Of a DNA stretch of 64,000 nt, positions 20,865-64,000 are shown piece by piece. Where the stretch lies: contig OZ316892.1 of assembly GCA_973895155.1 (NCBI GenBank), positions 23,351,168 through 23,415,167 of the forward strand, given 5' to 3'. Below the pieces are notes generated by a model that made no database searches, was not told the origin of the DNA, and saw only the letters and a program-made list of their open reading frames with translations. Positions within the stretch are counted from its first letter, which is position 1. Each line of letters starts with the position of its first letter. Made by a program: the position numbers and the translations under genes. Source of the DNA: Marsupella aquatica. Its lineage: Eukaryota; Plantae; Marchantiophyta.

Positions 20865-23800
20865 TCATGGACGAGTCACACCATAAATGCGTTCACTTGT
20901 TGCTTCCTTCCAACTCGTGGTCCGGTCCACCAATACTCGTGTTCGAGGAGGGCGCTCCCTCACAGTAGTGTTCACAGGTGTGCGATTGTATACCTTCCAG
21001 ACATGTCTTCTGATATTCTCGTTCCAATCCATGGCAGCACAACTCAAACGGGCCTCATGACTGGCTGAGAAATGAATGCGCTTGGTCGCATACTTGCCCA
21101 TCACGGAATGGTAGGTCTCTGACATGAAATTCTCTCGGGCCATGGTATAAAACCTCATCTTCGCGGGAGTAATATATTTTCTCATGAATTTTTGCATGGC
21201 CTTATGAGTCTCTCCACCTACATATACAAAAAGTCATAAAATATCAACAATGCTAACCTAAGTTATAACTCACATTAAAATTGCATAATTAGTAAAAGAT
21301 TTACCATTCTCATAGTAATGGTCAACTTGGATGGCTCCAGGCTCCCCAAGATGCTGACAAGGCCGGTCAGATAGTCCTGCACATAATCTGTGATCCCCGG
21401 CCCAATGATCACCACAGTTGCCCAATTCGAAAGCCAAGGATGCAGCATCTCCACCACTGCATAATGAACATTGAAAGTTGTTATTTTTGTCAAAACTAAA
21501 TCATCACATCTGCAACAATTACTACACTTGGATATGTAAAAGCCAAGAAGTCACACCATATTAGCACTATGCATACCTGTTCTTACACCGACGACAACAT
21601 ACGTAGAACCATGTCTTCAGCTTTGTGGCAATGTTGTGCTGAGACAACTCTGGGTACTTGAGGCCACGTGTCGGAATACGTACTAGTTCTCCAAGAGGCA
21701 GCCCACGCATGTCACCTACTTTATGGATGAGTGCTTCCTTCCTAAGAGTAGAGTACCCTCTCACTCCCCTACTCTTCAACCAATCCTGTAACTTCTTAGT
21801 TGTGACTGCTTGCAACTCAGAACGAGATGCAGCAGTGTCAATGTCAATGGTCACAGTGTAGGTTGCTCTCACCATCTTCTCCACAAACTTCTTGATGAGA
21901 TTTTTGGCCTTATGCCACAAGTCTTTCTGGTTCCTAATCCCCATGTCCTCCACAATATTATCAATAGTGGCTTTGTCATCATGGATAACCTCCGTGATAG
22001 AGATCCCTCCCTCTCTCAAATTTTCCAATGCTCTTTCAGTACCCTTGTCCTCCATGTGCCAAGCATTTCTCTCCTCCCTCCTAGTAATTGTCACCATTTC
22101 AATTACCCTATTATCGTCAACATTGAGGATAGAGGTGGTACCATGAAAACCGCTCCGAGAAGAATCCCATCGAGTATCTAAGTACACTAGTAACCCAGGG
22201 TCTGTCATAAACAAAGCACACACACATGCACTATATATGAGAAACAGGTCAACTAAAACTTTGGCTAGAAGAGCATGGTCCTTGAATACCCCAAAAAGCT
22301 GAAGGACCTAAAACAGATAATTACTTACCAAGCTCAGTTGCTCGCCGCTGCTGAATATCATCCTTCAATTCCTGCCACATGTGCCTTTTATTTTCTTCCC
22401 ATTGTGCCTTCACAGCTGCTATCCATCCACCACTAGGTCGGCCACGACCACTCTGAAAATCATGCCAATGAGCTGCAGTAGGAACATGTAAACCAAGATG
22501 TGCAGCAACAGTAGCCAAAGACGTATAGGTGTGGCCAGCGCAAAGGGTGGAATGATACAACTGGGGGGTAATCATAGGAGAACTCCTCCCAGGCTCATTG
22601 TCACCAGTAACAAAAGTCCAGCCATGGCCATCCTCTCCACAACCAATGTGAATCGACCACAACTGATGCAACTCCCTCACTCGTTGAACCCTTGGACTCC
22701 TAGAACATCCATGTATATGACACCAAGGGAGTAGCCTATCAACAAAAGTAGCCAACAAGTTGCGATCAAAAAATGCTACCCTAGCAGGTTGACGAGGCGT
22801 TGCTCTACGAGTCGGGACAAGGTCCGGAGGCTGTGATGGCTGAGAATCAGGGATATGATACTTGTGTGAGTCTGTTTGTGCTGGTGGCCGAGGCCCAATA
22901 TCTGATGATGGCTGAGGATCAGGTGCAATGAATGGCTCCTGGTAGAAGAAGCCCACATACATATATCAAAAATTGTTATTCAGAAATTTGGAATTTGTAC
23001 GGGGAAAGGCAAGGAGAGTGTCAAAGGGAGGGGGGTCAAACCTGAAAGGTATCCTCATTCCCAATGTTGTTAGCTCCTAAAGCTGTAAGAGACTCCGGAT
23101 CATCATCTTGGTAAATGGCATCATCTTCTGCGTCTGATCCGTATTGCTCGGCAATATGCTCCTCCAAAACTACATCCTGCTCAAGAGGTGAATCCCATCC
23201 ATCCTAGAAACAATGTGGGGTAGAATAATTAGTACCCTCAAATATGATTTTACCTAAACCATAAACTTCAAGGGAGTAAAAAAAATTGCTGTTGGTCCTT
23301 GGGTATTGAAGTTATTTTGTTGAAAGACCCAAAAACCTGAACCCAAAGGCATGACTCACATTATGGAATGCACCCTTGTTTGGTTACTACAATGCTGCAT
23401 AACATAACAAAATAAAGAAACTGTTAAGAGTTGGGATACCAATGCTTGGAATAATGTGTCCACTCTTCATTAAGGTGTGGCTTTATATAGCCATGAGGTT
23501 ACATGGTCTAAGGTTAAAGGTAACCTTAGCTTAGGGTTATATGTAAACTATGGTTTACAACACTCCCCCTTGGTTAGTTTATGGGGGTGTAAAGTAACCA
23601 TGTGTTTAACCCTAAGGAATTAAATTGGTATTCCCTTTGATGTAGCCTCATTAAAACCTTGCTGCTTTCTTCTCAAGGAAAGAGTACTACCATCATTACA
23701 TGTGGGGATCCAATCTGTATCCATTTATTTTATGTTTCCTATAGTTTATGGGGGGTAATTATTTGCCATTATATGTGTAAGATGCAATTACCTATCCATT

Positions 23801-40007: not shown

Positions 40008-40304
40008 CTCGGGGGTCTCACTATATGGGGACCTCCCCATCGCCTGCGACGTTTTGAGGCCTGGGACCCCCTAAAATGTAAGAAAAAAATATTATTTTTT
40101 AACCCCTATAAAGTTGGAATATTCTTGGAATATTCTAAAAATTGGATTAAAAAGACCCTAATGTTCTTATAAGTCTCAAAATTGAATTTAAAAGACCCTA
40201 TTGTTCTTCTACAAAAATTCTTAAGTCTTCCCTTAGAACCAATAAAATGACCCTATCCTTCGTCGCACGTGATATGCCATTTTTGTGGAAGTGAAACCCC
40301 CGAG
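40008..40304. mobile_element. 297-bp MITE, copy 1
   Basis: TIR CTCGGGGGTCTCAC / GTGAAACCCCCGAG with 8-bp TSD AAACCCAC. Confidence 0.92.
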
Positions 40305-41889: not shown

Positions 41890-42900
41890 CCTGTGCCTCG
41901 TAGGACCTCTCCTCCATTGGTCTCTAATGACTTATGGGTAAACACACTTTTGGCTGGTGCAAGAGAGTTGTTAGCAGCATCATCAGATCCCCCTCAATGT
42001 AGCCTCCCTTGTGTTGATCTGGAGACTATACCAGTTCCATCTAGGGTTGGTCGCACCCGAGCACGTTCCCAAAGACAACAGTGTCGTTATGAACCCTTGG
42101 GTGTGCATGAGACCGAGGACCAAGTTCTGCACCATACTCATAGAGTACCGCCAGGAGAGGACTATGTGGAAGTGGAAGGGAGGTTGGGGCTTTCATATGT
42201 CACTGGGAAGGCATTGACAGTCTTGAAGGATTTCTCATCTGAGAGATTCAAAATACCCCCTGGCCTAACCACTGACACTCCTATCCACATATGGGGTCAC
42301 CAATGGATAGTGAAGACATCCTCCCTAGGTCCTGACATAGGATTTGGCGTATTTTCCTTGGAGGACATTTTGGTCCCTGCAAAGCCATGGCCCCGAGGTT
42401 ATGATGGGGAGCACCTATTTCCATATATTGGTCCCGTATACACTTCAAAAATTTGGAACATTCTATTGCGCCAACACCCATCTTGGGGTGTCTATGCATT
42501 GCAAATGGATTCTGATCCAGATGAGGTCATGCGGAGGCCTTGGCATTCTCGGATGATTGATGGGGACCCTGTTTGCTCCGACAACATAGCCGGGTACATT
42601 AATAGTACTCATGGGAGAGGGAGAGGACTTAGGCCTAATGTTGAGTGGATACAAATATTTGGTCCACCTAGAGAGCCTTATTATGTAAAACACATGGATG
42701 ACCATGTCATGACTGTAGCCATTACAACCATTAGGGCTGGCGAGGAGTTGTTTTGCGACTATGAGTGGGATGCTCCCAAGAAAGCATTCCTTTCTCACCC
42801 TGTGAAGGGCAGACATGGATATACCACCTCTTTTGTTGAACATAAAATACATGACAATGGTTTCCAAACAAATTTGGTTCTTTGTATAAATAAATCCTAA
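41890..42900 (+). CDS. SET-domain protein exon inside intron 1 of CACTA TnpD
   Basis: VKTSSLGPDIGFGVFS (GxG), IDGDP...NIAGYINST (motif III-like) and IRAGEELFCDYEW (ELxxDY). The acceptor AG at 41888-41889 is in frame with the TnpD exon-1 donor at 41790. Confidence 0.82.
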   Translation, partial: PVPRRTSPPLVSNDLWVNTLLAGARELLAASSDPPQCSLPCVDLETIPVPSRVGRTRARSQRQQCRYEPLGVHETEDQVLHHTHRVPPGEDYVEVEGRLGLSYVTGKALTVLKDFSSERFKIPPGLTTDTPIHIWGHQWIVKTSSLGPDIGFGVFSLEDILVPAKPWPRGYDGEHLFPYIGPVYTSKIWNILLRQHPSWGVYALQMDSDPDEVMRRPWHSRMIDGDPVCSDNIAGYINSTHGRGRGLRPNVEWIQIFGPPREPYYVKHMDDHVMTVAITTIRAGEELFCDYEWDAPKKAFLSHPVKGRHGYTTSFVEHKIHDNGFQTNLVLCINKS

Positions 42901-43627: not shown

Positions 43628-43924
43628 CTCGGGGGTCTCACTATATGGGGACCTCCCCATCGCCTGCGACGTTTTTAGGCCTCGGACCCCCTAAAATGTA
43701 AGAAAAAAATTTTATTTTTTAACCCCTATAAAGTTGGAATATTCTTGGAATATTCTAAAATTTGGATTAAGAAGACCCTTATATTCTTATAAGTCTCAAA
43801 ATTGAATTTAAAAGACCCTATTGTTCTTCTACAAAAATTCTTAAGTCTTCCCTTAGAACCAATAAAATGACCCTATCCTTCGTCGCACGTGATATGCCAT
43901 TTTTGTGGAAGTGAGACCCCCGAG
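43628..43924. mobile_element. 297-bp MITE, copy 2, inserted in the TnpD coding sequence
   Basis: Perfect 14-bp TIR CTCGGGGGTCTCAC with 8-bp TSD TGCGTATG. Near-identical to 40008-40304. Confidence 0.93.
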
Positions 43925-46900
43925 TGCGTATGATGGTGGACTCACCTGCCAATAGGTTTGTGGAGGACCGATGGGGTGAGTTCAAGACAAATCCACGTCA
44001 TGTACGTCTAGGTTTGGCATCAGATGGGATCAGCCCCTTTGCATTGGCAGGGAAGGCCCAACCATACTCAGTTTGGCCAGTAGTCCTTACAAATTACAAC
44101 ATCCCTCCATGGATGGCCATGAAGAAGGGTCATTTGCTGCTCTCAATGATTATCCCAGGCCCCAAACAAGTAAAAAAGATTGATGCTTACTTGCAACCAT
44201 TGTTGGAGGAGCTTCAACAACTATGGAGAGGAGTGGATTTCTATGATGGTCGAGTGCTTACGGGTGGTTTACCTCGTGAATTTAAATTGAAAGCCATCTG
44301 TATGTGGGCCATACATGATCTTCCGGGTATGTGGAAATATACCTCATCCCATATAAATTATGCATGGTTTGTCATTTCTGGATAATATACCTCACCCCAT
44401 ATTAATTATGCCTTGGTTTATCATATATTGGAGCCCTGGCCATTGTTTAATGTATGCAGTGGGTGTGAACATTGTAGGGTTTGGATATATCTCTGGGTTG
44501 CAGGTCTCGGGATACCGAGCTTGCCCAACTTGTGGGCACGATTTGGAGGGAGTGGCGCGCCCAAAGTCTACCACCCTACGGAAGATAGTTTACATTGGTC
44601 ACACAAAGTATCTCCCCCCAGAGCATGAATGGAGGCGTGACCCATTCTTATACAACACAGATGATGGCCAACCAGACACACGCCCTCAACCAGTGCCAAG
44701 GGATCCACATTATTGGAAAGATGTATGGGATAGAGTGACAGACCCGGATGATCCATTACAATTGGCCCGATGTGGCATGACTCGATTGTCTGCATTAATG
44801 TCAAAGCTGCCATATTGGGCTGAGATGCCAATTAACCATTTGTTTGACCCTATGCACATTGAGGGGAATGTTGGGAGGTCATTGATTCGCCATCTATATG
44901 GAGAGAAAGACAACAACTGGAGAGAGAGTTGTGAGGAGATGGGGAGATGGCGATGCATGGCCCTCATGGGTTTTGGCCATCTATGGATCCTCCTAATGCC
45001 CCCCTGACTATTCACCCTCCTTGGGTATTGACCAGAGGTGAGCGGACTGAGTTTCGCAAACGTATAGGGTCAATGAGGTTTCCCACAGGTTATGGCGCCA
45101 ATCTTCGTAAGGCATTTGGGGGTGATGATTCTCCAAAATGGCCATCTTACCTGAAAATACATGATTTTCATCGGTTACTCGAACATGTCATTCCAGTTGC
45201 AATTATTGGATTGGGTAGTGAGGATCTTCGAGATGCCCTATGGTCATTAGGTAAGCTCTTGAGGTGGGTGTGTCAGAAAGAGGCGAATGAGGATGAGATT
45301 GCAGCAATGGACCTTTTTGGAGTGGAGGTATTCTTTGATGGTCAAGTTCACTTCCTCCTCCACCTAGTGCGTGAGGTTGCGATTGCAGGGCCGGTACATT
45401 GTTGTTGGATGTACTGGGTATATAGAGCAGTATATGGGAGTGATGAAGTCATATGTGTCAAATCATGCAAGAGTGGAAGGTAGCATTGTTGAGCGTCATC
45501 TTGGAGCAGAGAGCATGTTTTATTGTACAAACATTGTAGCTACACTTGATCCCAGAGCTCCAAGGGGCTGGATAGACGAGGCATCAAGGGAAGCAGACTT
45601 TGAGGATGACCGTCTCACAGGGGCAAAGGGAGAACGACTTATGGACTCAACTGAGCGTCTTCAACTTACTACATTTATGTTGTATAACTCGCCTGAGATT
45701 GTGGGAGATTGGACAACTTTTTATGAGGAGGAAAAGGCAAATAGTCGTCGGCCACGCAACTTCCCCAAGTTTGTCCCATACATGAGGGCAAAGTTGACAG
45801 AGATTGATGCCTTGTTGGAGCAAGGGGAGAGTGTGTCAGACTTCCCTTTGGTTACAGACAGTTTTCGCACCTTGGTTCATGGACCATTACTTACGGTGAC
45901 AACTCGGACAGCCATGTGGTCAAAGGGAAGACATTTTTGTGTGCAATGACTTGATGACAAGAGGGCAGCTACACAAGATTGTGGGCTCATGGGTTGGTTC
46001 ATCCAAGATTCACAAAGTAGCATATCTGATAGGAATCCAATACGCTCTATGGTGGCCCACTATGGAAAGATTGAAGAGATATTGAGTGTGAAGTACCATG
46101 CGCACACCACTTTGGAGGAGGTGGTGTTGAAGTGCAAATGGTTTTGGATGAACCTTGTTGGCCAAAACCAAACTTGCAAAGAAGATGCTTGTGGGTTCAC
46201 ACGGTTGAAGACAGGTGCAAATAGTGTCATTAGCTCAACTTGGAGAACCTCTGATCCATTTGCATTCCCCCATCATCTTGAGCAGGCCTTCTATCTTCCC
46301 TATCCCGATGATCCTGAGTGGTCCATTGTCATGAGTTATATTCCACGATCACGATCCATAGTCCAGGAGCGACCCAATGTAGTTGTAGTAGAAGATTTGG
46401 ACCCTGAGCCTTGAGGTCCTTGCTAGTGTACCTTGGGACCAATCAAATAGGACCACCTCTGAATGTTTACTTTTACCGGCATTATTTTTATGATTGTTTT
46501 ATTTCATGTACCCTCTCCTATGAGAGTGACCACATTTCTTAATAAACTTATGAATGTTGGTTTTCCCACACTCTGTCCGATGTAGTGACCAATGGAAAGT
46601 ACTCGGAAACATAGTGCCTTACAATTGTGGCAATATCCGATTCAATCTGCATCGGACCCCTCATGAAAGTTATCGGAGATATTTCCGATCCTCTCCGCAT
46701 CGGAACACTTCCGATGCCAAAAATAACGGAAATAGGGACCGATGGCTTTTGTATCGGAAAAATAATATGCGATGTAAAAATAATGGCAAATTGCGTAAGG
46801 TAAAATATCGGAACTGTGCGACGGTATTAGTATCGGAAGAGTGACGAGGCACAATATCGGAGCATTGGAAAAACACTGAAAATGTACTAGTGCATGTAAG

Positions 46901-47358: not shown

Positions 47359-50138
47359 TCTCCCGGAGCACCACCAAGGCTGAATACAGGGCACTATCTC
47401 AAGGGGCTCGAGAAGGGGTTTTTCTTCGTCGACTTATTGCTGAGCTTCAGTTCATTCTTGCACTTTGGGTGGCACTTCATTGTCCCCAGCAGCCCGATGT
47501 CCTTTCTGGTTTGTCCATGGCACAAACACCCACCACTCAAGATTTGCATCTAACTCTGCATTGTACGTGACAATCAGGGTTCCATCAACCTTGCCAAAAA
47601 TCCAATTTTTCATGCTCGAACCAAGCATATTGAGCTGCAGTATCACTATATTCGTGAACGTCTGCTCGAGGGGGAGGTATCTGTCAAATATATTTCTGCG
47701 ACAGATAATCCAGCAGACATTCTCACAAAAGCACTTTCAAAGTGGAAATTTGAGCAGCACCAGAGTTTTATTGGAATGAGATCTTTACAAGATGTCTTGG
47801 CCAGCTCGCCATCTACCTTTGCTCAGAGTGAGTGATATCTCTGTAAATCTCTAAGCAATACTCACATCGGTATATCTCCTTTCCAATGTGATCTTGTAGC
47901 AAGGTGATAAAGAGATAAATGATTGTTTACTCCTTAACAAGTTGATTTTGTTCCCGTTAGGAGTGGATAAGATGGAAAAGACTAAATTAACACAATTTGA
48001 GAAGTTTACACCAACATTCTTAGGTTTGAGAGATTTCTAATGATCTCCTTAACATAAGTGTTTAACCACAAACTCAAGTGAGTAATCCTCAGGATTCATA
48101 GTGCAAAAATAAATACTAGAATTAGCAAAGATTCAAACTAGAGAGAGTAGGTATGAGGTTTCAAAGTGCAAGGACGTTGAATTTTGACCATCACCACTCC
48201 TTCAATAAGGATTATGGCCTAATTTAAGATTCGGAAATCAATATTGTGTATGCTTTTTGATTTCTCATAGCAACTCTTCTTCATCTCTTGAATTCAGAAT
48301 ACAACAATGTAAATCAACCCTGGACACTTTTCTGGTCTTGCATAAGACGGTACTAGAATACTCAAATTGGTTTACTTCTCTTACTATCCTTAAGATTGCT
48401 TGTTTGATCGAGTTTCATGCAATTTCAATTTCCTCTTTGATGAATCTTCTATATGTATTGGTCACAAACCCTGCTAATCTTCCAATATCGTCATAGGCAC
48501 ACGCTAGTATCCATTGAATCATTGCACAACAACTCAAGGGTTGCTAATCTTGAACTTCTCTTTACTTAACCATGGTAAAAAGAAGGGAATCTGAAAAGAC
48601 ATAGATTCATCCAAAATCAAAATGGGGAAATCAAATGCATCTCTCTCTTGGTTGACTTTGGGCTCTGAGCCTCCTTTTGTACTAAAAGTGGAGATTATGA
48701 AAAAACATGCCTTTTCAAAACCCAAGTCTAAAGGAATATGTAAATAAAAGTAAACTATCATAGTCAAAAATATATGGAGTAGAGTCTCCAATAGATATAT
48801 CAACAAAATATTGGAGTCTACTTACTCATATACTAGTCTAGTACATAGCCATTTCTAGGTCTAAACTAATGTGGCTCTAACTCTCTAAATATAACTCTAT
48901 TCTGGTCCTAACTTTTGAGAAGGAACCTCCTTAGGGCTAGCTACAACAAGGGGCTCTGGTCGGACGAAAACTCCCTACTGTCCAGTGGTAAAAGGAAGGG
49001 ACGGGTCAATGTCCAGGTTCTCCTAATGAGCGCTTGGATCATGGGAATAAGTGTAAGAATGAGAGTGGAGGTGTGTATTGGTGGTGTAAATGTATCATCT
49101 ACCTTGGCACTCACATCTACCACTGACATGATTTCGGACCAATTGAGAAGTATTTCCGCACATAGAGAAGGGTGTTTTTCATTCTCGCCAATTTTGTTGA
49201 AATGACACAAATAGCGATCCAAAATTCCGCAATATCCCAATAGTTCCATTTTTGTATCGTAGATGGGATTTCATTGAAGGGGTGAGCAATGCCCACAGAC
49301 TACCTCATTATATATATTTAAACTTCCGAAATGTACTGTTTGTTGTTGACAACGTTCAACTTTGTTTCCAACATGGAAAATCCTTATTTTCCGTCAACTT
49401 GTACACATGGAAAATAGTTTTGCTTCCAAACCCAAACACATAAAGGAAAGCAACTAGCGATACTCGTATCGCAAACCACATTCATCATTTGAGAATATAC
49501 TCCAAAAGTAGCTCAACCTCTCCTTTCAAAAACTTTACTATCAACAATTTGAAAAGTTACATCATAGTTGCCCAAAATTTACTACACAATTCAACGCAGT
49601 TGATCTACTTTTAACCAAAAAGTAAAGTGACAAAATCATGGTAACCATTCCGCCTAACCATCGTGAAAAGTGATTGTGAATCAGCAAAACTATGGTACAT
49701 AACTCCAAAGCACAATATGTGCACCTTTTACAGGACCAATTTGAAAAAATCACCCCAAAATGCAAAAAGCGATACTTGTATCGCATCTAGAACCAAATTG
49801 TCTCAATGGCTGATTAAAGCAACCCACAGTACAATATCCCAAATAGAATAAAAACTGCATCCACCCCGGAGGAAACACTTAACATGTACATTAATTTTGT
49901 CGTTAAAACACTAATTTGAACCTTTTTTAATCACCCAAGCTATTTTGTCGTGTAGCGGCTGACCAGTCAGAAGTAGCCACATGGCTCAGGGTCACCAAAA
50001 ACTATAAATACATCAACGCCGACTAAGTTTTTTGCACCATTTTGTTTCACAAAGTTATGCGTCTATTTGAGTTTTTTGAGCATAAGAGCATTTTGTGACA
50101 GGAATGCCCAACAGTATAGAGTTAGTTATATGTTAGCC

Positions 50139-50612
50139 ATGTCTCAAGAGTGGTCGCCCTCCAGTTCAGTTGAGTCCTCCCCCAATGGTGGTCCTCATGG
50201 TCGTCGATGTTTGCCAAATCATATTCGGAAATTACTCCCAGTTTCTCAACAGAGTGTACCCGAAATATCGGACTCTGATTCTGATGGAAGTTCTGAACCA
50301 GAACCTGGGGCTTACTATGTGTCACCTAGTAAACCTGATAAACGTCGGCTCCTAAACATTGCCTCCCCTCGGATGCAAAAGCTTTCTATCCAAGGTTTAG
50401 GTTCTAGACATCAATTTAGACCGTCTATCCCTAGGTATGGTGAAGGAATCAAGAAGACAATACGCGTATCGGCAACGAGATTGGGATCTCCAATTGACGC
50501 TTCAAGTTTCCAACAGGTGCCAGAGGAGAGAAGAGAAGGTCGAATGCAAACAGCGATACGTGTATCGCCATTTGCATTGCCTTTGAGGGAATCAGTTTTG
50601 CCACAGGTGTAG
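50139..50612 (+). CDS. Short Ser/Pro-rich ORF of unknown function, possibly a truncated paralog of the transposase N-terminus
   Basis: TATAAATA at about 50003. The acidic SDSDSDGS segment resembles the low-complexity N-termini of the DUF7869 genes. No domain was recognised. Confidence 0.3.
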   Translation: MSQEWSPSSSVESSPNGGPHGRRCLPNHIRKLLPVSQQSVPEISDSDSDGSSEPEPGAYYVSPSKPDKRRLLNIASPRMQKLSIQGLGSRHQFRPSIPRYGEGIKKTIRVSATRLGSPIDASSFQQVPEERREGRMQTAIRVSPFALPLRESVLPQV

Positions 50613-51302
50613 CGAAGGATATTTCTTGGGACAGACGTGAGAGCGCAAGGTACAATACACACAACGATACGTGGATCGCCATTTGCATTGCGTCGAAGAG
50701 AACTGGTTCTCAGCAACAGCAAAGACAACGGACTACAAAGTCAACAAGAAGCCTTAAATGATGAGTAACAAGCCCATACTTTAGGAACTCTAGCCAAAAA
50801 ATCAGAAAAACAACGAAAAAGTCAAAAAAAGTGCAAAAATTAGCACCTATTTTAGAGCAAAAATATGGAGCGAACAAAATATGACATAAACTAGCTATGT
50901 TTTGACACCTAAAAATGACCAAATTCATCTGAAGTTACATTCCACCAATAAATGATCTCAAATACAACACTATTATCTACAATGGTCTCACAATTACACG
51001 AGGTGTCTTTTGAAACAACAACTAAATCACCTCCAAAAGCCATTGTCATTTAAAAACCAGAAAATAAATTACTACAACTTAACCTGATACACATTATTGT
51101 GAAAAGAAGACAAGGAGAATAGAAATGACACCATCTAATTGAATTGAAACACAACCCACTAAGATAATATTAAACTACAAATTTCTCAAGAAACTTTAAC
51201 CATGAATTCATGAATAAGTGGTAAAGGCATTTTGAAAATTTGTAAATTTTCAAGTTATCCATGTTTTTCAATGGTAATGTCACAAACAATAACTACTTTT
51301 CA

Positions 51303-54300
51303 TTACTCAGATCCAGAAGTTCTCAATTCTTGAAACGAAATATCCCTAGATTTATCTCCTAGCGGGGTTCTAGTTGATCCATTCTCTTGTTCTTGCTCTT
51401 TCTCTTCTGCCAAAAATTCAGTCAATCGGATTTTGATTCGATCTACTGTCTTTTTGTACAATGTATCAGATTTTGTCAACATGAAGTTGTAAGCAAAAAC
51501 AGTCGTTGAAGATAAATCAAGCTCTTGGTGAAACCATATTGGTTTCAAAGTTCCTTTCCCACGACCACGTTTCTTCTTTTCGTAGTTTAAGACTTCTGGT
51601 AAGTACTTGGCTTTCCAAGGATCTGACCCGGTTTTTGGAGCATGCCATAAAACATAAATCATTTTTGGAATGTTGAACTCGTCGCGCTGGTCAATTCTTT
51701 CCACCTTGGCCACCCAAAATGTTTCCGATTCTTCTCCAGCAACAGAAATATAAGTGTTGACTTCAAGATCCGAAAAGTCTCCTTCCATATTCTCCTTCTC
51801 TGCATCTATCTTTCCTTGATTCCGATAAGGACCCACGTATATATCTCTGGTAGGTCCGTATACTCTCTCTTCAATTTCCTCTTCATTGACAAGGACTCTG
51901 GGAACTTCAGCAGCAACAGCAATCTCCCTTTGGGAGCGTGGCCATTGAAAAGGGAAAATCAATGGTCTTTGATCAAGGAGCAAAGATTTATTCAATTCCC
52001 GTTGCTCTTCAAAAAACATTCTCCACCAGTTCACTTCCTCTTCTGAGAATAAAGTTTCAACTGCAAGTATTCCCTTTTGAATCTCATTTAACGAATCATC
52101 CATCTCCTTCAAAGTCATTCTTGAAGAACTAGACATATTTGGTTGAGTCCTTGTAACGTTCTTATCCCCCTTTTTGAAAAGGGGTAATCCGGGAGCACAA
52201 CCCATCACCTTTTCTGGCTCCTCTTCCCTCAAAAATTTCACGCCTCCGTCAGGTTTCCAAGTTGAGTCCGTGGAAAACTTCTTCCCCCATTGGGTTGGAA
52301 CTTGATTTTCCAACTTGTCAAATGCAAATTTGTACTGGTGGTGGAAGGTAACATTTCGAATCCTTTCAATGACTAAAGGTGGATCTGAGAAGGCATATTG
52401 ACGGAAATCATATGTTTCCTTTAAAAGAGCGATATTTGGTTGGGGTTGATATGATTCACAAATAATATCACATAGGCTTTCGTATGTGAATGCCTTAAAC
52501 CTTGCTAGTCGTTTAGAAAATCGACTGAACATTTGATCTATTTGGTCGTGTGTGTGTCCAACCAACAAGAATCCTAGTTTGATTTTCCGAAAAACCTTTC
52601 TTCGAATCAACATATGAAGATAGGCAAAGAGTAAATTATTTTTATTTTCTCTACTGGTATTATCAAGTTGAAGATAGAGAACAGGCGGCAAGCCACCAGG
52701 CTTTTCTTCCCATTCGTGAAACACCCTTTGCAGGATTGTGACTGTCAAGTTTCCATCATTATGCAATACAGGATAATTAAGAAACACTCTTGAAAATAGT
52801 GCACCATTGAAAACCAGGCATCCGACAACGTGCATTTGGATCAAACATGTTTCGTCCACCGATTTTGGGGGCCGCGGCCAATGAGGCAACCTTGTCTTCT
52901 TCTGATCCATCCCATCAATGACAACTCCCAAATATTTATCAGAATTTGAAAAACATTTCTTACGATGCTTCGCGAGTTTCTCACGTTCTTTGGATTGTTG
53001 GTCTCTATGTTTTTGTAACATAATTTCCCCTCGCCCTGGAAAAACAACTTGTTAGTTTCTTAAAAAAAAAAATTAGAAATCATGTGTTAAGCCATATTCT
53101 TGAAACAAAAACTTGTCAAACTTGTAAGCAACTTACTCTTTTCGGTCTCCGAGACAGCTTTGTCCCGAATTGATTTGAACTCCTCGCAATCCGCGCAAGC
53201 ACTGAATCGATTGACTGGAGGAATCTTCACATGACCAAATTCTTGAACCCAAACTTTCAAGAATTGTCGATAGGATATTTTTGAAGATTCATCAATCTTG
53301 GCATAGTTGGAGTCGTAGATCTTCCATACCTCCAGCTTTGAATAATTATCCGGTAAATGTGAAACTTCTTTATTTGGCAATGTTTCCACGCGTGTCTCAA
53401 AAAACGACCTAAGCCAACTGACCAAGACTAATCTTTTAACAGATGGAGGGCGTCCAACTGGTTTAGAATATCCTAAGTCTTGGTTGTCTAATTTCAAAAT
53501 TCTATTTAATCTATGATTGCCAACGCAAAATATAAGCTTGAAAGCTTTCCGACAAATACTCTTTTGACCAAACGTGTAAGATATAGTCTGCCTCCCTCCT
53601 TCATTTCCGTCTCGCTTTATAAGCCACTGCAAAGATAAAGATCGATCCTGAGATTTCTGCCTCAAAAATTTAGAACGGGCCTCACGAATTTCTTTTGGAG
53701 ATAGACTTAGGAGACAATGACTCTGACAACAGTACTTACTATTTGTTTTCTTGATATCCTCCTCTTTCAACTTTGTTTCACACAAAGTGGCGTTGCTCGT
53801 ACGTTTGTAACGACTAGATGCCACCGGAACATCATCATCCTCCCCACTCTCCGAAGACTCGCTTTCATTCGATGATGAAATGGTCACCAACATTTGCTTC
53901 TGAACATGCCTAGATTCCAGACCTGCAGCCTTCGGAGATGGAGGCTCTTCCTTCACTCTATGCACCCTTGGAATACCTGGGCGTATTTCAGAAATCCCTC
54001 CATTACCGTGTAGGGACCCTTTCAATATTTTCCTAGGGTCCCTCTCCACCAGGTTGGTTTCCCTGTTTGAGTTTCCGTGACTTGATCCGCTCCCTGCCCC
54101 AACACCATGACTCCTAGGTAAAACTGAGGAACGCACATTAGAATTCTTTTCTGGAATACTTTTCAATAACACTGGTCGTCTAGTTTCTTCCCTCATCCCC
54201 CTGTGAAATGTTTCCGACGTTGGCTTACCAAAGGTTTTACTTTTTGGCATTTGCTTCAGCCGCTGAACACTTTGCAGACTGCAAAAATCTCTGTCATTTT

Positions 54301-54703
54301 CCCCACTTAGTGCCTTCTTCGTCTTTCCAAATCCAGTCTTCATGAATTCATGAGACCGTTTCCCAGACATCCAAATAGGCATTGAACCTTCCAGATTACT
54401 CCCCAATTTGTCCTTTGTTGGTGACAAAGGAGATACAACTTGACGTCCAGGGGGACCAATACTCTCCAAGGAGTCAGAGGAGCTCCCTGACCTCTCTTTA
54501 CCACCGACCAATGATTTCTTCCCACTAATTGCAAGTCATAAAGGACTACGTTTTAACTTGCTCATAGGGGTGGGGGGTGGCATATCTAAAACAGTAGTTA
54601 TTCCAGGGATATCTGGGCCAACCACTGTGCAGGGGCCATCCGGCAATGAAACATCATCAGAAACTCCATCTGAATAATCATCTGATTCGTAACACGCCGC
54701 CAT
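51303..54703 (-). CDS. DUF7869 / Sola-like DDD transposase 1 (exons 54703-53137 and 53035-51303; one premature TGA at 54536-54538)
   Basis: Motifs: CCQSHC, ICRKAFKLIFCVG, FSACADC, IDGMDQ, LYLQLDNTSRENKN, FLLVGHTHDQIDQMFS, plus a C-terminal FWVAKV...YVLW beta module. It has a phase-1 GT-AG intron and TATAAATA on the minus strand near 54802-54809. Confidence 0.85.
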
Positions 54704-55246
54704 TGGAAAAACTAGTGCAAATTGACAAGAAACTCAGAAAATCAGTAAAATCTAACAAATGTTCTCAAAATAATGACCAAGAGTCATGAATAAACGAGCC
54801 TATTTATAGTTTTTCACGGATTGTTGGGACTTTTTAACTTCAAAAATATCAAATATTCATGAAATTTGCAAGCTTTTACCCGTTAATACCCCGAAATATT
54901 CATGAATAATTGGCCCAAAAACATTGATTTATCATGATTCTGGGTTAATTTTACTAAGTCGCGCCTGATCCGTGATTAGTATGTATAACCAAGGAACACG
55001 GGGCAGCCCATTCATTTTCACTCAATGTCATTTGGATTTCCTTTGTAAAAGAGTGAAAAACAATCTCGCTATCCAATTTCGTGCCATTTTCAGCACTCAT
55101 CGGCGACGTGTCGCGAGTTGTCGCGGTCGCACTTCATTTCAACCCTGTTTTAGGTAGTAATTTAGGCCCTGGGTGATGTCTTCACGTCACCCCCTCCGAA
55201 CCCTATTTTAAATACCCTTCTGCATCACCGAGGTGTACAAGCAAAG

Positions 55247-55396
55247 AGAGAGGAGACTCCCTTCATGAATTCATGAAGGTCGGAGCGAGAGGGAGACTCC
55301 CTTCATGAATTCATGAAGGTCGGAGCGAGAGGGAGACTCCCTTCATGAATTCATGAAGGTCGGAGCGAGAGGGAGACTCCCTTCATGAATTCATGA
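55247..55396. repeat. 40-bp tandem repeat x3.7 containing the perfect 20-bp palindrome CCTTCATGAATTCATGAAGG
   Basis: Palindromes at 55260, 55300 and 55340, plus a partial one at 55380. The array lies between a TATA-like box (about 55204-55214) and the methyltransferase ATG. Confidence 0.95.
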
Positions 55397-55561
55397 TAGG
55401 AGTCCTGGGGTGGCCGAGAGCGTTGTTAGATCCGTAAGGACACGGTTTTAGTAGCCATTTGTTGGCACATTCCTTGGTTCTGTGGCACTTTGTCTCGCAG
55501 GTTGGGGTTGAAGTGGACTGATTTTGTGGTATGTTCTCAGGTTTGAAGATCAGGCAAAAAC

Positions 55562-58500
55562 ATGACAATGTCGCAGGAAGAGCTGGTGGATGACATCTTT
55601 TCGCGCCATCCTTTGACGGACTTCCACAACTCATCCTGGACGATTTCCTTAGGGACGGAAACATGGAAGAAGCCCTTCCTAATGCTGTGTGTATTTGAGG
55701 GGCTTCCATCGGGGGCATTAGGGTGGGTAAATTACGGCCGCATCGATGTATTTCGACGGGGCGACGAAGTTGTGAACATGTTGATCACAACGAAGGAAAC
55801 ATCAACTTTGATTGTCGTGGATGTGGAGAGGTTTTCTGGAACGGCTGCCACCTGCTATCTCGATGAGGACATCGATAGCATCATTGAGACTGTCAAGTCT
55901 CTTTCGAGTGAGGAACGTTACCACGACGTCGCGGGAAAGATTTCCGGTTTTGTGTTTGAATTTCACGCTAGCACTTTAAAGAGTGCAATCCGAAAATCAA
56001 GAGAGATTCTCCGGAAAAGGTCGGCAGAGAAGGGAGTAAGTCGTCCACCCAAATCTGGGGCTTCCGGTGTTCCTTCTGGATCGAGGCCTAGCATTTTACC
56101 CGATGATATTTTGACCGTGGTAGCGCCTACAACCTCCCGGGAAGCAGCAGCATCTGGAGGGGGATCTCAAGTTGGCAGATCATCCCAGGGAACGACTTTG
56201 ACTGGTGGGTCGGCACAAGGTACGACTGGAACTCGCATTTCTTCAAAGAAGCGACCTGCTATGACTCCTAAGCCTACCGAGCCCAGTGCTACAAAGTCAA
56301 AAAAGAAGACTTTGGAGAAAATTCCAACGCATTTGGAGCAAAAGGCTCAATCAATGTCAATGGATGCACGGGTATTGTACCAGGAGGAGATTCTGGGAAG
56401 ATGTGGTGTTCAAGAGGAGACCGTGACCGTTGACATTGGTCAACTTTACCCTCCAGTGAGAGAGAAGGCTGTGGGCTTGCCCATTTACCAGGTCCGACAC
56501 ATCCAACCATATTTCTTGACCCAATTGACCTTGCGGATGAAGACTGTGGGTGCCAGTCCACTTGCAGCTCCGTTTGTCCTCTTGGTGGATCCGAAGGAGT
56601 GTGCTACTAGGCAAGACTTTGATTTTTCAAGGAAAGCTGATTACCATTATTATGTGATTGGGGGCAACCATTCAGCCTGTGCCAAAGCAGACCTTGCTCT
56701 TCAGTTCCCTAACAACAAGGCATTTCGGAGAGTGCAATCTTGGATATTTGCGGGATTGAGTGTGCAAGAGGCAAGAAACCTTGCGTGGAGTCACAATATT
56801 GATTCTGAATTTCGACAACAGATGACGACAATCCAGAGAGTAAATTATATTCACATGAGATTTGTTGAGAATGGATTGTCGTCCAACCAGGATTTCAAGA
56901 AAGAGTGTGCTACTGAAATCAATCTCAAGGATTGGGGTGTACGAAAGGATGCTGAGGTTCTTAATGCCAATGATAACCTATTTCAGTTGGCATTCCGACA
57001 AGATCCTGTGTGGTCATTTGTGAGGCAGATTTGTGACAAGTGGGAGATGTGTGAGATCAAAGGTCAAAAAGGAGACAAAGGCAAGAAGAAAGTCTCTAAG
57101 TCTGGAGATGCCAAATTGCCTTATGAAGACATGAAATTAACAGAGTGGAGACACATGCAGGCCTTGAAAGATCCTGATATGATTTGCCCAGTGTTACAGA
57201 GAGTTCTTACTAAAGAACTCTCTTTACAGGAAATGGGTCACGAATTTACTCGACACAAATTTCAGATGCAGGTGCAGAAGGCCTTCCTCACGTGTCTACA
57301 CGAGGAGAGTTGGTCAGGTTGTAAAACCAAGTACCCTGAGCATTGCACAGACAATGTGCTTAAGAATTTTGTACCGGTTTTCCAGACATGGGTAAGATTC
57401 TGTCACCTTTCTTCGAATGATTGTTTGAATTCATTTAATATTTGGAATCCTTGTTTCTAATTCTACAGTTCCTTTTTGTAGAAAGATACCACCTCCCGGA
57501 AAAAGAAGGGAGATGAGGAAGGCAAAGATCTCAAGTCATTCCCGGACAAATTCAATGCGCATATTGTGCAAGCCCAAAATTGGCTATCCATGAAGACTTC
57601 TAGTCGGCAAACCCAAGAGGGGGAACTTCATCCAAATTCGTTTGAGCATCCAGAGTTTGGTGATGTGCACTATGATATTTTTACTCATGATGCTCAGCGA
57701 TTACATGAGGTGGTTCCGGGTCGGGCTTACACATTAGCTTTAGTGGATATTCCCTACGGGTTTGCATTGCCTGGATGTCTTCATGAAGACACTATTGGAT
57801 GGGGAACTGAGGAGATCACAAAAATGGTCCAATCGTTCAAGGTGGCTACTACTGCAAAGTTGTGGCGTATTATCATTCACCACAGCCTTGACCAATATGA
57901 GGCCATCAAGACCGTTTTGAAAGCGGAGTGTAATGGAGGGTTCCAGAATTGTGTGTGGTAAGAAATATTTGTTTTTGAAAAAAACAACTATTAGTTATTC
58001 ATGATTTCATGAACCATGTTTCTCAGTTTAAATAACTCCTTGACTTTTTGTGACTTTTCAGGGTTAAGGATAATGTGAAGAATGCTGGTGGACCAAGATT
58101 GAACAACAACTTTGAGTGCTTTACAATTGGCTTTCACAGCCAGGATGGTAAACGGTCATTGGAGCACTTCAATTTTGACACAAATGAATCAAGGAACAAT
58201 GTGGTTGTATGCGCAGCTGTGACTAAGAAGCTGAAACACAACGGGGATAACAAGGCAGTGAATGTTTATCAGAAACCACGTGCATTGTTAGATTGGGAAG
58301 TGAGTCATTTTAGTCAGGTTGGAGACTGGGTTTTGGATATTTGTTCAGGATCAGGGACTGGGACAACCTCCTCCTTGGCCATGGGGAGACATTGCGTTGC
58401 CATTGAGATTGACGAGCGACAGAGCAGTGTGTTGAAAGGGAGGATTCTTAACCTTGCAGATAACATTGAAGAGGAAGACGGACAGGGGGAGATGGATGAG

Positions 58501-58623
58501 GAGAGTGAGGAAGACATTCCTCAGGCCGGAGAGGATAGCGTGGTTGACGATGCCACAATTGTTCCAGAATTGACGACAGGGACTTCCGGAACCGAGGAAG
58601 GGGAAGCGGTCCCTTTGGATTAG
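55562..58623 (+). CDS. ParB-like + beta-class N6-adenine/N4-cytosine DNA methyltransferase 1 (3 exons, 955 aa, intact)
   Basis: Exons 55562-57391, 57482-57957 and 58062-58623 are GT-AG, in frame and total 2868 nt. A ParB/Srx-like YYVIGGNHS motif comes first. Catalytic motif IV LVDIPYG precedes YQKP...VLDICSGSGT...GRHCVAIEID (motif I), which is the permuted order of the N6_N4_Mtase family. Confidence 0.88.
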
Positions 58624-59025
58624 ACTAGATAAATAGAGGGACTCGTAGCATTTGAAACCACTTGGGCTTAAGTTGGGTTATATTTTGTAAAACTTTGAGT
58701 TTGACTTAAACTCTGATCGATGAGTTTGATTTTGATTACTTTTATAAAGTGCATATTTCAAGGTTTATACAATTGTGAGAATATCATATAAGATATGCTT
58801 AGATTTTGGTGGTAAAATTCTCTTGAGTCTAGTTTGGAAAATACATACCATTTTTTGGTGGTTTTTTGGTATACACTTTTTAATATCATGAAGATTTTGA
58901 AAAGAGAAATAAGGCTTTGGACTCATCCCTTAAGGCTTCTTGTTAGTCCAGAATCTGCGCAATCTCAAATTGTAGTGGGGAGATGTGTACAATGATTATT
59001 CGATGCTTCTCCAATCAATGGACCA

Positions 59026-61884
59026 ATGGCAGCCGCTCGTGTACACAATACAAGTTTGGGGAACAATCAAGACACACCATTGATGACCGCCAGACCCACT
59101 TCTGCAACTAGGAGTGTTTCTAGACAGCCAATTAGACGTCTTCAAGTTGCTAGACGAGGCCTCACTAGTTTTAGCGGAGTTCAAATTATGTACAGAGAAC
59201 CAAGAAGTCCAATAGTGTTTTCTGATGAGTCAAGTGAGGAGGAAGATGTTGAGGAAAATAGACAGTCGCAAGCCATTGCACAAGTTGTATCAGAATGTTT
59301 GGAAACAAATGAGGGCGAGAGTAGCTATAGTCATCTCTTTAGTGATCCGAGAAATCCCACTCTACCTTCAGATGATAGTAGCTCAAAAGATACTAATGGT
59401 TCTATTCCGGAAGTTGCAGAGAGACAAGAGAGTGAAAATTCACTCCATGGATTTCACAGTATGGAGAAACAAAAGGAGCTTAGCAAGAAAGTGAGAGACA
59501 AGCTTGTGAGGAAAGATAATGTTACAAATCAAAATTTAAAGACAAAAAAAATGAAAGAAGTTTTTAAGTACCATGTTGTGATAATTTGTGTTTGAGAAAT
59601 TTTGGTCTAGATTTAGTGACAAAACACCGAACCTTCTATTATGGCTTATCATCGACCAAGAAGAACATACTTCTAAGGGGCTGTTTGAAAAGTGGGCACG
59701 GTGGTCCAACCGGTTACATTGTTGACGGGAGATCTTTTTGTCGAGAAGGTTTCAAGAAATTATTTTCCGTTGGAAATAATCGGCTGCACAGAATCTCAAG
59801 GAATACGTTTTCTCGTATTCAAAATGACACATTTTGCAAGGAAAAATCGGTTACTCATCTTTCACTAGTTCAATGGTTGAATGAGTTTTTCATGTCAAAT
59901 GTTGAAAGTCTTCCAAACAAGGACATCTTCCACTTACTAGACAATTGGATGAAAGCTAAAGTATTTGATGCTTTCAAGACTGATACTATGGTGCGGAAGG
60001 AAACCGAGATCACATATTCTTGGTTTGTTTGCATCTGGAACAAAGAGTTCCCCAGGGTGCATATTCCAAAAAATAGTCGCTTCTCCACATGCGGTCCTTG
60101 CATAGAGTTCAAAGCACTTCGCGACAAAGCAGTACTTGAAGTAGAAAAACGTAAGTTGTGTCTACCTTTAAATAAGTAAAGGATTGATGTTAAGTACTAC
60201 ATTATTTACTTGTTTGGTTTGGTGATGCGGTTATTATTGACAAAACATTGACGTTCATTTGACAGGAAAATATTCAACACTTTTGAACCAACATCGGAAA
60301 GCACAAGGAGTTGAGAGGGAGAAATTAGCAAAGCACCGAAGCAAGTGCTATAAGAGTCCAGAAAATTATTTGGGGATCTGCATTGATGGTATGGATCAAA
60401 AAAAGACTGAGTTGCCACATTTCACTAGGTGCCCCAAAAACATGGACGAGAAGTACTTTATTCCGGTACATGTGGTGGGTTGTTTGGTGTTCAATGGACA
60501 TTTGACATCAAAAGTGTTTTTGAATTATCCAAACATTCACAATGACACCAACTTGACAGTGCATGTGATGCAACATATTTTAAATAGTTGGGAAGGTCCA
60601 CTCCCTCCAGTGTTGTATCTACAACTTGATAATACCCCTCGAGAAAATAAAAATAAATTTCTCATGGCATATTTGAATATGCTTGTTGAGATGAGGGTTT
60701 TCCAAAAGATCAAAGTTGGTTTTCTTTTGGTTGGACATACCCATGATCAGATTGACCAAATGTTCAGCAAGTTCTCCTCAAAATTAAATAAGCAAAAAGC
60801 TTTTCGGGTGGATAGTCTTGCAGACATTCTCAAGGATTCGTACAATCCAAAGGCTGAGATAATTTTTGTTGAAGAGGTTGCTGATTTCAAGAAGTTTGTG
60901 TCGGATAAAGACCAACCCAATGACATGGGAGGTATTGGGCATGTTTTGTGTCCTCTACATGGTATTAGTGGTCAAAAGCAATTTAGGATGAAGAGGGTTG
61001 TAGGAGAGAATGGAGGAACTTCAACTTTGTTTCACGCAAAGCATCTTTCTAGCACTCAAAGTTGGGGAGAAGCAGTGGAGTTCCTTAGATACATCCCCAC
61101 ATCTACCATGTGGGTTGCTGCACAAATGGCATTGAAATCTACAACCAGAGCAACAGTGGAGAATGATGAACATGATGACGGAGGCAATGGAGACGAGCGT
61201 CTTCTCTACAACCATGTTGCAGTCCTGGAGAAATATCGCAAATCAATTGAAGATGGATTCAATTACTTTGATGATGAGGATAAACTTTGGTGGCTCCATT
61301 TCTTTGACAACCAGAAAGAAGTGATTAAACACCACTTGAAGGCAGGACAATGGGTTTTTGATTGGACGTGGCCAAAATCAAATATTGGAGTAGAGACTCC
61401 AAGAAATGCACTTCCCCCACAAATAGAGCTAGCCTTGCTAGATAAAATTGCAGGCGCAACAACAGTCATGTACTCTGGAACAAGGAAGAAGAAAGCAGTC
61501 GAGGGAGACTTCAAAGATCTTGAAGTGAACACTAAATATGCAATGATTTGCGTGGCTGCATATAGGGATCCAAACAGCAGACCATTTTGGATGACAAAAG
61601 TCATAGATATTCTATCCAAAGTACAAGATGTTCCAGAGAACATCAAAATTGTATGGTATACAATGGATTCGCGAGAAGGGTCTGCTATGGAAGGTCAATA
61701 TTACCCTGAAAAAGCTGCATCCTCTAACAAGTTACTTGAGGACACATTGTGCCTCTCAGAAACCGCAGTTTATGCATATAATTTTGCACTGCTCTCAAAC
61801 AACACGCTTCCAGTACAAACAAAGCGAATCATCCAAGCAGCAATGCTCGACACGGAAATCATTGATGCAGATGACTGTGACTAG
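59026..61884 (+). CDS. DUF7869 / Sola-like DDD transposase 2 (frameshift near 59545-59570; intron 60151-60265)
   Basis: Same motifs as transposase 1 (CCDNLC, FCREGFKKLFSVG, FSTCGPC, IDGMDQ, LQLDNTPRENKN, VGHTHDQIDQMFS, FWMTKV...IVWY). The phase-1 intron is at the identical position after DKAVxExEK. Confidence 0.85.
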
Positions 61885-62049
61885 TTAGAGTAGGAAAAGT
61901 GCAGATAGGTAGGAATGTTGTTGGGAATGCTACATCCGATACATGTATCGCCAATTGCATTTCAAACCTCAAATAGAGATATGTTTATCAAGGTTCTCAA
62001 TCATTAATAGAAAGCCTTGATAAATCCTTAATAGTGTTATTGCACACAT

Positions 62050-64000
62050 CTAATCTAACAACATATCATTGAGTTCCCCATCGTCCGGTGTTCTAGGTAG
62101 CTCTTCTTCAATGTTTGGCTCATTTTCTTTAGGCTCCTCCTGGTCATCAGTATCCACATAAATGCTAGTACCAATGACTCCCAACTGCCCACCAACCGGA
62201 GGCTGAACTTCTTGTCCCTGGCCACCTTCACCGGACACTTGTGCTTCATCGTATAGAGTCCAGACAGATTCCAATGTCATAATCCGACTCCTCAAAAATT
62301 CTACCTGAGTCTCACCTTTGTCAACAGCACACCCATTCCGAGAGTTGAGAAGTGCAGCCACCAATGTTGACCCAGTTCCACAACAAAGGTCTGCCACCCA
62401 GTCCCCTTTCTCACTGAAATGATTAACAAACCAATCACCCAATGCAATTGGTTTTTGGTAAGGGTTTACAATAAACCCTAATGGACTCACAGACTTTGTA
62501 GTAACACAGGGAACTTTCACAATGTTCACCCTGCTTTCATCAGGAGCAAAATTGTACATCTCCTTCTTTCGGACTCCATCCTCACTGTAATAACCAATTG
62601 ACCAGTTCTCAAAGGCCCAAGCTAGCCTTGGCCCAGAAGGGTGCTCATGGATGTTTGTCTTCTCCCATATACCGGCCTCAACTCCGCAATTGCAAACCTT
62701 CTCAAGTGCGCTCATAACGCTATTTGTCTGCTGCAAGGAATGGATCACAACAAACCTCCACATTGGAGAGGTGGTGATTTTAGCAAAATTAGTAACCATC
62801 TCATTTACATCCTGTTCAGTGAAAGGTTCCTCGTCAAACTGAGAACCAGGGGCATTGAAACCGTATAGGATGTCTGCAATTGCCAAAGTGAAATGTTTTG
62901 GCTCTAGAAAGGTTTCTAGTTTCCGAATATCTCCAACATGAAGAGAATATGAGAATGCGTCTCCATTTGCATTCTTCCATTGATGTTGAGATGAAGCTGT
63001 AGCAATTGATGAGATATTTAGTCTCCGATTGTGTTTTTCAATTGCTTCAAGAACATAGTTCTTGAAGACGTAGGGGATGTCGCATGAAGGAATCTCAACC
63101 TCCACGCCCTCGTCAAATTCATTTCCAAAAATGACTTTTTTCTTCCTCTTTGAACTGATTTTGAACTGCACATTAAACAAAACTCTTTGTAAGATTTCCA
63201 AACACAAATTTTGAATGCCACCAGTGATACAAGTAACACTACCTGCATTCAATATCTCAAATATTTGCTTTGAATATATATAACTGAAAACAAAGGGACA
63301 TAAGGACATTGTGCTTACTGCTTCTGTGAGCTTTTCGCACCAAGTTGAAAGGACTTTCACATCGGTTTCCTGGGGAAACATTTCCCGGCATGTTGCCCAA
63401 TCTTTTTGACCAGAAATCTGCAGGAACAATTTCTTTACCTTTGCCAACTTCTTAAGTGTCTCACCTTCTTTGAACATTTGTTCTAGAGTGATTTTCTTTC
63501 CAATTACTCTGTTTAGGAGTCGCTTCACATGCTCCTGATTGGAAAGCCCCTGGAGAGCTCTGAAGACCCTCAAATTGAAATGCCCAGAGAGCTTGTTCAT
63601 TTTGATTTCACTTACACTCAGCGGTTTAGGTTTAGCTTTTGATTTACCTTTTGATGTTGCTGATAGCTGCTTGGCCATGATTGGCTTTGTTTGACCAAGG
63701 ATCTCAAACTTTTGCCACATAGAGAAAATTTTATCTTGGAGCTCCCAAATCTCCCCAGATTGAAAGGCAATCTGAAATGTAGGGTCATGTTTGGCCATTG
63801 AGTCACGAACACCTGGAGTGTAATCAAGCATACATTCCTTACAACAAGCTTCTTGCAACTCTTTAGTTGACCCCACATTCATTTCCATGAAAATATTGTG
63901 ACAGGCACGAACTTTGTCAATCGATGTCATGGTTTTCCGGTACTCCTGGTCGTAGTTATGCTGGAAAGCCAGCATCCTGATCTCATGTCTCGTTAGACCA
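62050..64000 (-). CDS. Methyltransferase paralog 2 (5' part runs off the window; probable 153-bp intron 63166-63318)
   Basis: LAFQHNYDQEYRKTMTSIDKV is homologous to LAWSHNIDSEFRQQMTTIQRV of copy 1. Motifs include IADILYG and NPYQKP...VADLCCGTGS...RNGCAVDK. The intron is at the position equivalent to copy 1 intron 1. Confidence 0.85.
   Translation of the reverse strand, partial: GLTRHEIRMLAFQHNYDQEYRKTMTSIDKVRACHNIFMEMNVGSTKELQEACCKECMLDYTPGVRDSMAKHDPTFQIAFQSGEIWELQDKIFSMWQKFEILGQTKPIMAKQLSATSKGKSKAKPKPLSVSEIKMNKLSGHFNLRVFRALQGLSNQEHVKRLLNRVIGKKITLEQMFKEGETLKKLAKVKKLFLQISGQKDWATCREMFPQETDVKVLSTWCEKLTEAVSTMSLCPFVFSYIYSKQIFEILNAGSVTCITGGIQNLCLEILQRVLFNVQFKISSKRKKKVIFGNEFDEGVEVEIPSCDIPYVFKNYVLEAIEKHNRRLNISSIATASSQHQWKNANGDAFSYSLHVGDIRKLETFLEPKHFTLAIADILYGFNAPGSQFDEEPFTEQDVNEMVTNFAKITTSPMWRFVVIHSLQQTNSVMSALEKVCNCGVEAGIWEKTNIHEHPSGPRLAWAFENWSIGYYSEDGVRKKEMYNFAPDESRVNIVKVPCVTTKSVSPLGFIVNPYQKPIALGDWFVNHFSEKGDWVADLCCGTGSTLVAALLNSRNGCAVDKGETQVEFLRSRIMTLESVWTLYDEAQVSGEGGQGQEVQPPVGGQLGVIGTSIYVDTDDQEEPKENEPNIEEELPRTPDDGELNDMLLD

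Follow-up and report, generated by a model that had tools for sequence, protein, structure and literature searches.

Nested Sola1-type transposons in Marsupella aquatica carry ParB-like/amino-methyltransferase genes and candidate family-specific palindromes

Two nested transposons with transposase and methyltransferase genes

We analysed a stretch of 64,000 nucleotides from Marsupella aquatica (Marchantiophyta; assembly GCA_973895155.1, contig OZ316892.1, positions 23,351,168 to 23,415,167 of the forward strand; hereafter the window), and found that two DUF7869 transposase genes (tnp1, tnp2) and two methyltransferase genes (MTase1, MTase2) near its right end belong to two nested DNA transposons, with element 1 lying within the transposase gene of element 2. 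Our reading is that these are Sola1-type transposons whose ParB-like/amino-methyltransferase protein likely binds a palindrome of its own element and methylates nearby DNA, probably at adenine; we estimate its probability at roughly 0.55.

A first-pass annotation, made from the sequence alone, had listed the genes in the order tnp1(-), MTase1(+), tnp2(+), MTase2(-), and open reading frame (ORF) reading and profile search recovered the same order and strands. Pfam profiles matched both transposases (DUF7869, E = 4e-51 and 2e-50) and both methyltransferases (N6_N4_Mtase, E = 1e-8 and 3e-7), also as proposed there. The tnp1 and MTase1 genes stand head to head and form element 1, and tnp2 and MTase2 stand tail to tail in element 2. 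All introns given here are predicted from sequence, the two of MTase1 being GT-AG.

50743..58944, no strand: element 1, complete Sola1-type DNA transposon, 8,202 bp (inverted ends, 4-bp duplication, joint 50738>58945 in runs X1, X2 and X3)
50739..50742, plus strand: left target-site duplication AGTC (sequence; the joint shares 4 letters)
58945..58948, plus strand: right target-site duplication AGTC (sequence and joint)
50743..50774, plus strand: left terminal inverted repeat (TIR), 32 nt, starting AACA, first 15 nt perfect (inverted-repeat search)
58913..58944, minus strand: right TIR, 32 nt, finishing TGTT (inverted-repeat search)
51303..54703, minus strand: tnp1, DUF7869 transposase of ~1,099 codons with a predicted intron at 53136-53036 (profile search)
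55562..58623, plus strand: MTase1, 955 aa, predicted introns 57392-57481 and 57958-58061 (translation, profile search, structure prediction)
49125..64000, no strand: element 2, interrupted by element 1, left end placed at 49125 +/-1, right end past the window (loose ends and depth step)
50140..61884, plus strand: tnp2, DUF7869 transposase gene interrupted by element 1; contains stops, a frame change and a predicted intron at 60151-60265 (profile search)
62050..64000, minus strand: MTase2, 3' part, the gene being cut by the window end, predicted intron 63318-63166 (profile search)

Element 1 is a complete transposon, because 32-nt inverted ends and flanking AGTC bracket both tnp1 and MTase1 and because a joint connects 50738 to 58945. 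This joint, with 4 shared letters, is the empty site, and it was found in three of the four public sequencing runs that we aligned to window positions 48000-64000. Across the empty site the frame of the 5' part of tnp2 runs on, and therefore element 1 jumped into tnp2. The ends of element 1 and the empty site inside tnp2 rule out a single four-gene element, and the earlier description of the four genes as one old set has to be replaced: both families are old, and their adjacency is a nested insertion. The proposed cut-and-paste element carrying a ParB-fused beta-class methyltransferase was borne out by the ends, the duplication, the empty site, recurrence elsewhere and the predicted folds. Read depth on element 1 was several times that on element 2, which we do not take as copy number.

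The left end of element 2 was placed by loose ends at 49124 (X1) and 49126 (X2) together with a depth step. The 5' coding part of tnp2 begins near 50140, beyond the interval first annotated. Read depth is high over positions 48000-49124, a repeat that apparently received the insertion of element 2.

The paralogues share 42% identity between the transposases and 33% between the methyltransferases, with introns at equal positions and phases. The matching intron position first noticed in the two methyltransferase genes therefore extends to its phase. The tnp1 and tnp2 introns had been called identical in these diverged paralogues; the position holds, and so do the first 8 nt, but the sequences differ, the introns being 101 and 115 nt long and agreeing in 58 of 115 columns. 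A stop at tnp1 codon 56 (54536-54538) is private to the window copy, other copies having G at 54538 (X1, X2, X5). Likewise, motif IV of MTase2 reads DILY in the window copy and DIPY in other copies (G at 62867 in X1, X2 and X3). Both are lesions of the window copy, since the other copies in the public runs read intact codons.

MTase1 combines a predicted ParB-like part with a beta-class methyltransferase domain

MTase1 had been described as an uninterrupted 955-aa protein with GGNH, DIPY and a downstream motif I. The length and the motifs hold (the downstream motif reads DICSGSG), but the frame is free of stops only once two predicted introns are removed. Support for these introns is indirect: the match to relatives breaks off at 57962/58055, and the public runs include a joint across 57396-57480.

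In the predicted structure, a ParB/Srx-like plus helical part covers residues ~270-570 and a beta-class amino-methyltransferase domain residues ~670-905. The C-terminal domain was predicted with a mean pLDDT (predicted local distance difference test) of 83, and its best structural match was CcrM (E = 3e-14), followed by M.BceJIV, bdelloid N4CMT and M.RsrI. It has a Rossmann fold with motif IV ahead of motif I, the arrangement of the beta class. The N-terminal part matched Noc/ParB in Foldseek (E = 1e-5), with structural Z-scores of 9.3 for PadC, 8.5 for pNOB8 ParB and 7.4 for KorB, including the KorB DNA-binding region. By this model, MTase1 would have the domain order of ParB/Srx proteins, in which a helical DNA-binding domain comes after the ParB N-terminal fold.

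ParB CTPase clamps carry a GxxR CTP-binding motif. In place of GxxR, the 34 mapped sequences have a GG[NGC]H-type motif. Motif IV was counted in 79 mapped family sequences, some of them redundant; its first residue was Asp in 75 and Ser in none. The S-adenosylmethionine (SAM)-binding DxxxG[ST]G motif was present in most of 105 family sequences. A search for fused forms of greater length found none, which is weak evidence.

The gene pair recurs and the methyltransferase is under selection

The search for MTase relatives gave 523 at E<=0.001 (cluster representatives), and the named sources among 30 looked up were Chara, Ginkgo, Riccia, Adiantum and a sea cucumber. Among animals, members of the MTase family and close relatives of DUF7869 were seen in records of sea cucumber, sea urchin and oyster (P0168, Holothuria leucospilota; P0246; P0251). 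A pattern scan of metagenome contigs gave at least 113 loci, 47 of 113 belonging to the MTase family and most being too short for a linkage check; three contig loci (L070, L060 and L076) had more than 4.5 kb 5' of the MTase gene. L070, on a contig unrelated to the window, has a full intronless DUF7869 frame head to head with an MTase (~35% identical to MTase1), and inverted ends, 26 nt perfect, bracket the pair. In L060, weak transposase matches (42 and 38 bits) lie at the contig edge in the orientation seen in element 1. Three further families show a sharp end at TGTT 3' of the MTase, with unrelated flanks. In Riccia, DUF7869 and MTase-family proteins have neighbouring locus tags at R1sor_010795/010796 and 020633/020635, so that 2 of the 4 MTase-family tags are no more than two tags away from one of the 18 DUF7869 matches listed. 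Linkage to DUF7869 was thus found outside the window in L070 and in Riccia, and none of the findings that the first-pass annotation named as refuting its proposal was observed. One relative, at L019:1407-8987, is split by a LINE-like (long interspersed nuclear element) insertion of ~7.5 kb.

The ratio of nonsynonymous to synonymous substitution (dN/dS) of the MTase was 0.015-0.135 in all 16 of the 27 comparisons with unsaturated dS, and no stops were seen; the MTase is under strong purifying selection. In a midpoint-rooted MTase tree of 39 rows, MTase1 and MTase2 fall into separate supported subclades of one unstarred group (90/90), which also contains Ginkgo, Adiantum and Riccia members; the tree points to neither a donor nor the host lineage.

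Viral scans gave generic MTase motif matches and no transposase. The phage search gave 24-29% identity over the MTase domain alone, the ParB part being uncovered among the 15 of 574 matches listed, and PHROGs likewise matched the MTase domain only; these searches therefore identified no prokaryotic donor.

Each element has its own repeated palindrome

Seven copies of TCATGAATTCATGA (<=1 mismatch) were found in element 1 against 0.02 expected, and none elsewhere in the window. Four are in a tandem array upstream of MTase1, and those outside it are at 51200, 54340 and 57999. Element 2 has a different palindrome in 4 copies against 0.00 expected, with none in element 1 or the rest of the window.

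55252..55404, no strand: 40-bp tandem array between tnp1 and MTase1, four TCATGAATTCATGA copies (repeat search)
49458..61950, no strand: element 2 palindrome CGATAC-NN-GTATCG at 49458, 49770, 50554 and 61937, variant at 50665 (palindrome search)

An unbiased count took the commonest spaced palindrome per locus in 14 relatives, with 39 controls (7 window tiles and 32 unrelated loci) plus 30 resamples each. The results showed that one palindrome reached 4-7 copies in 5 of 14 relatives, compared with <=2 in the 39 controls. The repeated palindromes are of the CGATAC-N3-GTATCG type in L070, L048 and L058, and CGAGAC-N2-GTCTCG in L051. We dropped the palindromes of L081, whose array is of doubtful membership, and of L060, where the commonest has only 3 copies, as support. 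These counts suggest that the 14-15-bp family palindrome is a likely, still candidate, ParB-type binding site, and its 6+2/3+6 geometry would suit a dimeric ParB-type binder.

Other features of the window

A Copia-type retrotransposon, its frame in pieces, occupies 23422-29423; with two identical 141-bp long terminal repeats and a 5-bp duplication (GAAAC), it is therefore a recent insertion. Two 297-bp insertions resembling miniature inverted-repeat transposable elements (40008-40304 and 43628-43924) are 97% identical, with inverted ends and an 8-bp duplication of their own. A 336-aa plus-strand frame with a SET domain (41890-42900, E = 2e-6) lies just upstream of decayed CACTA genes and may be transposon cargo; the frameshifted CACTA transposase genes (Transposase_21, DUF4218, DUF4216) are at 43915-46414 (+). 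On the minus strand, 30517-34194 is an open, coiled-coil-rich frame of 1,225 aa with no Pfam family above cut-off, and two frames at 21567-22965 resemble a Mutator-type transposase remnant with a weak Rho_N match.

Relation to known systems

In its available text, PMC10741241 defines Sola by a 4-bp duplication and a DDD transposase. Element 1 has a 4-bp target-site duplication and inverted ends AAC...GTT, as in Sola1, and Asp is retained at four alignment columns, each in 22-23 of 23 DUF7869 sequences, with tnp1 and tnp2 having them as well. By analogy, from the ends, the duplication and an Ectocarpus parallel, we infer that DUF7869 corresponds to Sola1. That parallel, Sola1-1_Ec32 (PMC12477816, 2025), encodes a 1,104-aa ParB-like plus N4C/N6A methyltransferase on the strand opposite the transposase and shares the 4-bp duplication and AAC...GTT ends with element 1. 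It differs in coming from a brown alga and in size (21.5 kb with a 282-bp TIR, vs 8.2 kb with a 32-nt TIR). We compared the two by description rather than by protein sequence, and the text available to us does not mention a palindromic target. Its authors propose that the element modifies itself and point to cases in green and red algae, citing Bao 2009 and Iyer 2011 for the green ones. The pairing, which the first-pass annotation took to be undescribed, was thus already published; the Ectocarpus element shows the general design, and the locus is not a new system. What is new is a complete land-plant element with an open MTase frame and a family-specific candidate target.

No land-plant description of the DUF7869 and ParB-MTase pairing was found in the literature searched, with subscription papers, Repbase, Bao 2009 and Iyer 2011 outside that search. 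The ParB-MTase clade of element 1 was not found in the available text of Iyer 2016 (PMC4738411). A self-written 6mA (N6-methyladenine) or 4mC (N4-methylcytosine) transposon mark has been proposed for algal elements, and we found no test of it in the literature.

The Plavaka (EnSpm) elements of Bostrychia, through their accessory genes PAG2/PAG3, also combine an N6_N4 MTase with ParB, the ParB gene lying by inverted-repeat arrays, and binding to the element's own DNA is proposed (bioRxiv 10.1101/2025.02.11.637652, available text). They belong to a different superfamily, with separate genes for a fusion of ParB to a 2-oxoglutarate (2OG) oxygenase and for a fusion of the MTase to SET. VANDAL/VANC elements resemble our case in that an accessory protein goes together with repeated, family-specific motifs outside the coding parts, but are of the Mutator superfamily; VANC is not known to be a methyltransferase. 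CcrM, M.BceJIV and M.RsrI share the fold and the order of motif IV before I with the MTase family, which differs from them in sequence (16-21% identity), in D[IVAF]PY, in the ParB-like fusion and in being spliced. Marchantia DN4MT1 and bdelloid N4CMT are also beta-class folds in eukaryotes; they are host genes, with no sign of orthology by motif. DN4MT1 has TSPPY (Walker preprint, available text), and with Ser in 0/79 family sequences, and so no SPPY as in 4mC writers, the suggested link to DN4MT1 fails and orthology is ruled out by motif.

Weighing of the proposed mechanism

In the mechanism that we favour, the ParB-like part, probably dimeric, would recognise the 6+2/3+6 palindrome as ParB does parS, and docking would keep the MTase attached to copies belonging to its own family. 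The mark could keep the element's promoters usable or shield them from host 5-methylcytosine (5mC) silencing, so that the MTase gene would be retained as fixed cargo. Motif IV begins with Asp and never Ser, and we therefore lean towards 6mA.

Several observations weigh against this mechanism. The seven palindromes of element 1 are not all independent, four of them belonging to a single tandem array; 8 of 14 relatives have no repeated palindrome (1 copy each), their contigs being short 5', and the L081 array, ~2 kb away on the 3' side of the gene, may not belong to the element. The Pfam ParB domain was absent from all 28 family sequences searched, and the ParB call comes from predicted structure. 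L076, one of the three loci with long 5' sequence, is a truncated copy without a transposase, and the other 2 of 4 Riccia tags have no DUF7869 neighbour among the matches listed. Amino-methyltransferases have the catalytic motif (D/N/S)PP(Y/F/W). DPPY itself occurs in just 7 of 79 sequences, most having D[IVAF]PY and MTase1 DIPY, and therefore catalysis is not assured.

The replacement of the first motif IV proline in the other 72 of 79 speaks for a catalytically weak or dead domain, a DNA- and SAM-binding module in a protein that would bind the same palindrome and, in the manner of VANC or TnpA, counter silencing or promote transposition while leaving no mark. VANC and TnpA accessory proteins are reported to regulate their cognate elements by sequence-specific binding (PMC5735166; 2026 preprint). 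However, plants, Chara and others all retain the Asp, the second Pro, the Tyr and the SAM motif, and constraint on the catalytic exons equals that on the ParB exon. Active KsgA/Erm enzymes, moreover, include [IL]-for-P variants. We regard a pure binder as rather unlikely. An active enzyme might instead write 4mC, for example at the CG of CGATAC sites, and so pre-empt or mimic 5mC: the close structural matches also include bdelloid N4CMT and PvuII MTase (E = 4e-11 and 3e-10), and most family palindromes contain CG. The best structural matches, however, are 6mA enzymes, no motif IV has the Ser of TSPPY, and the element-1 palindrome has no CG, which makes this somewhat less likely still.

The palindromes could also be transposase-binding or hairpin-derived repeats, with the MTase acting without them, on host DNA or RNA at large. 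The subterminal position of some sites (51200; 49458, 49770) would fit this, and transposases themselves can bind and activate cognate elements (2026 preprint, available text). Against this, the main arrays of element 1 and L070 are intergenic and kilobases from the ends, and Plavaka, of another superfamily, has ParB genes by inverted-repeat arrays; we consider the idea improbable. A chance association of transposases with a host MTase gene cluster could appeal to the MTase fragments of L076 and L063, which adjoin host-like genes, but L076 retains the element's right end, and for element 1 the empty site, inverted ends and duplication around tnp1 and MTase1 refute it; elsewhere we give it hardly any weight.

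Beyond the locus, and more tentatively, at below even odds, the favoured mechanism could describe a widespread land-plant Sola1 lineage with parABS-like self-recognition, in which a palindrome reader fused to the enzyme places 6mA on its own family only. Plants would then have an epigenetic mark that is encoded by a transposon, addressed by sequence and co-evolving with its target. Such a lineage may account for real 6mA in non-flowering plants.

Significance

The locus offers a complete element with defined ends and an open MTase frame for testing self-marking, and its two adjoining sister families, whose candidate palindromes differ, can serve as controls for each other. Selection on the MTase also extends to plant relatives under the database names Riccia, Adiantum, Ginkgo and Chara. 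If the enzyme is active, land plants would have another source of amino-methylation alongside DN4MT1, the gene would be anti-silencing cargo of a new kind, and the enzyme might also serve as a targetable methylation tool.

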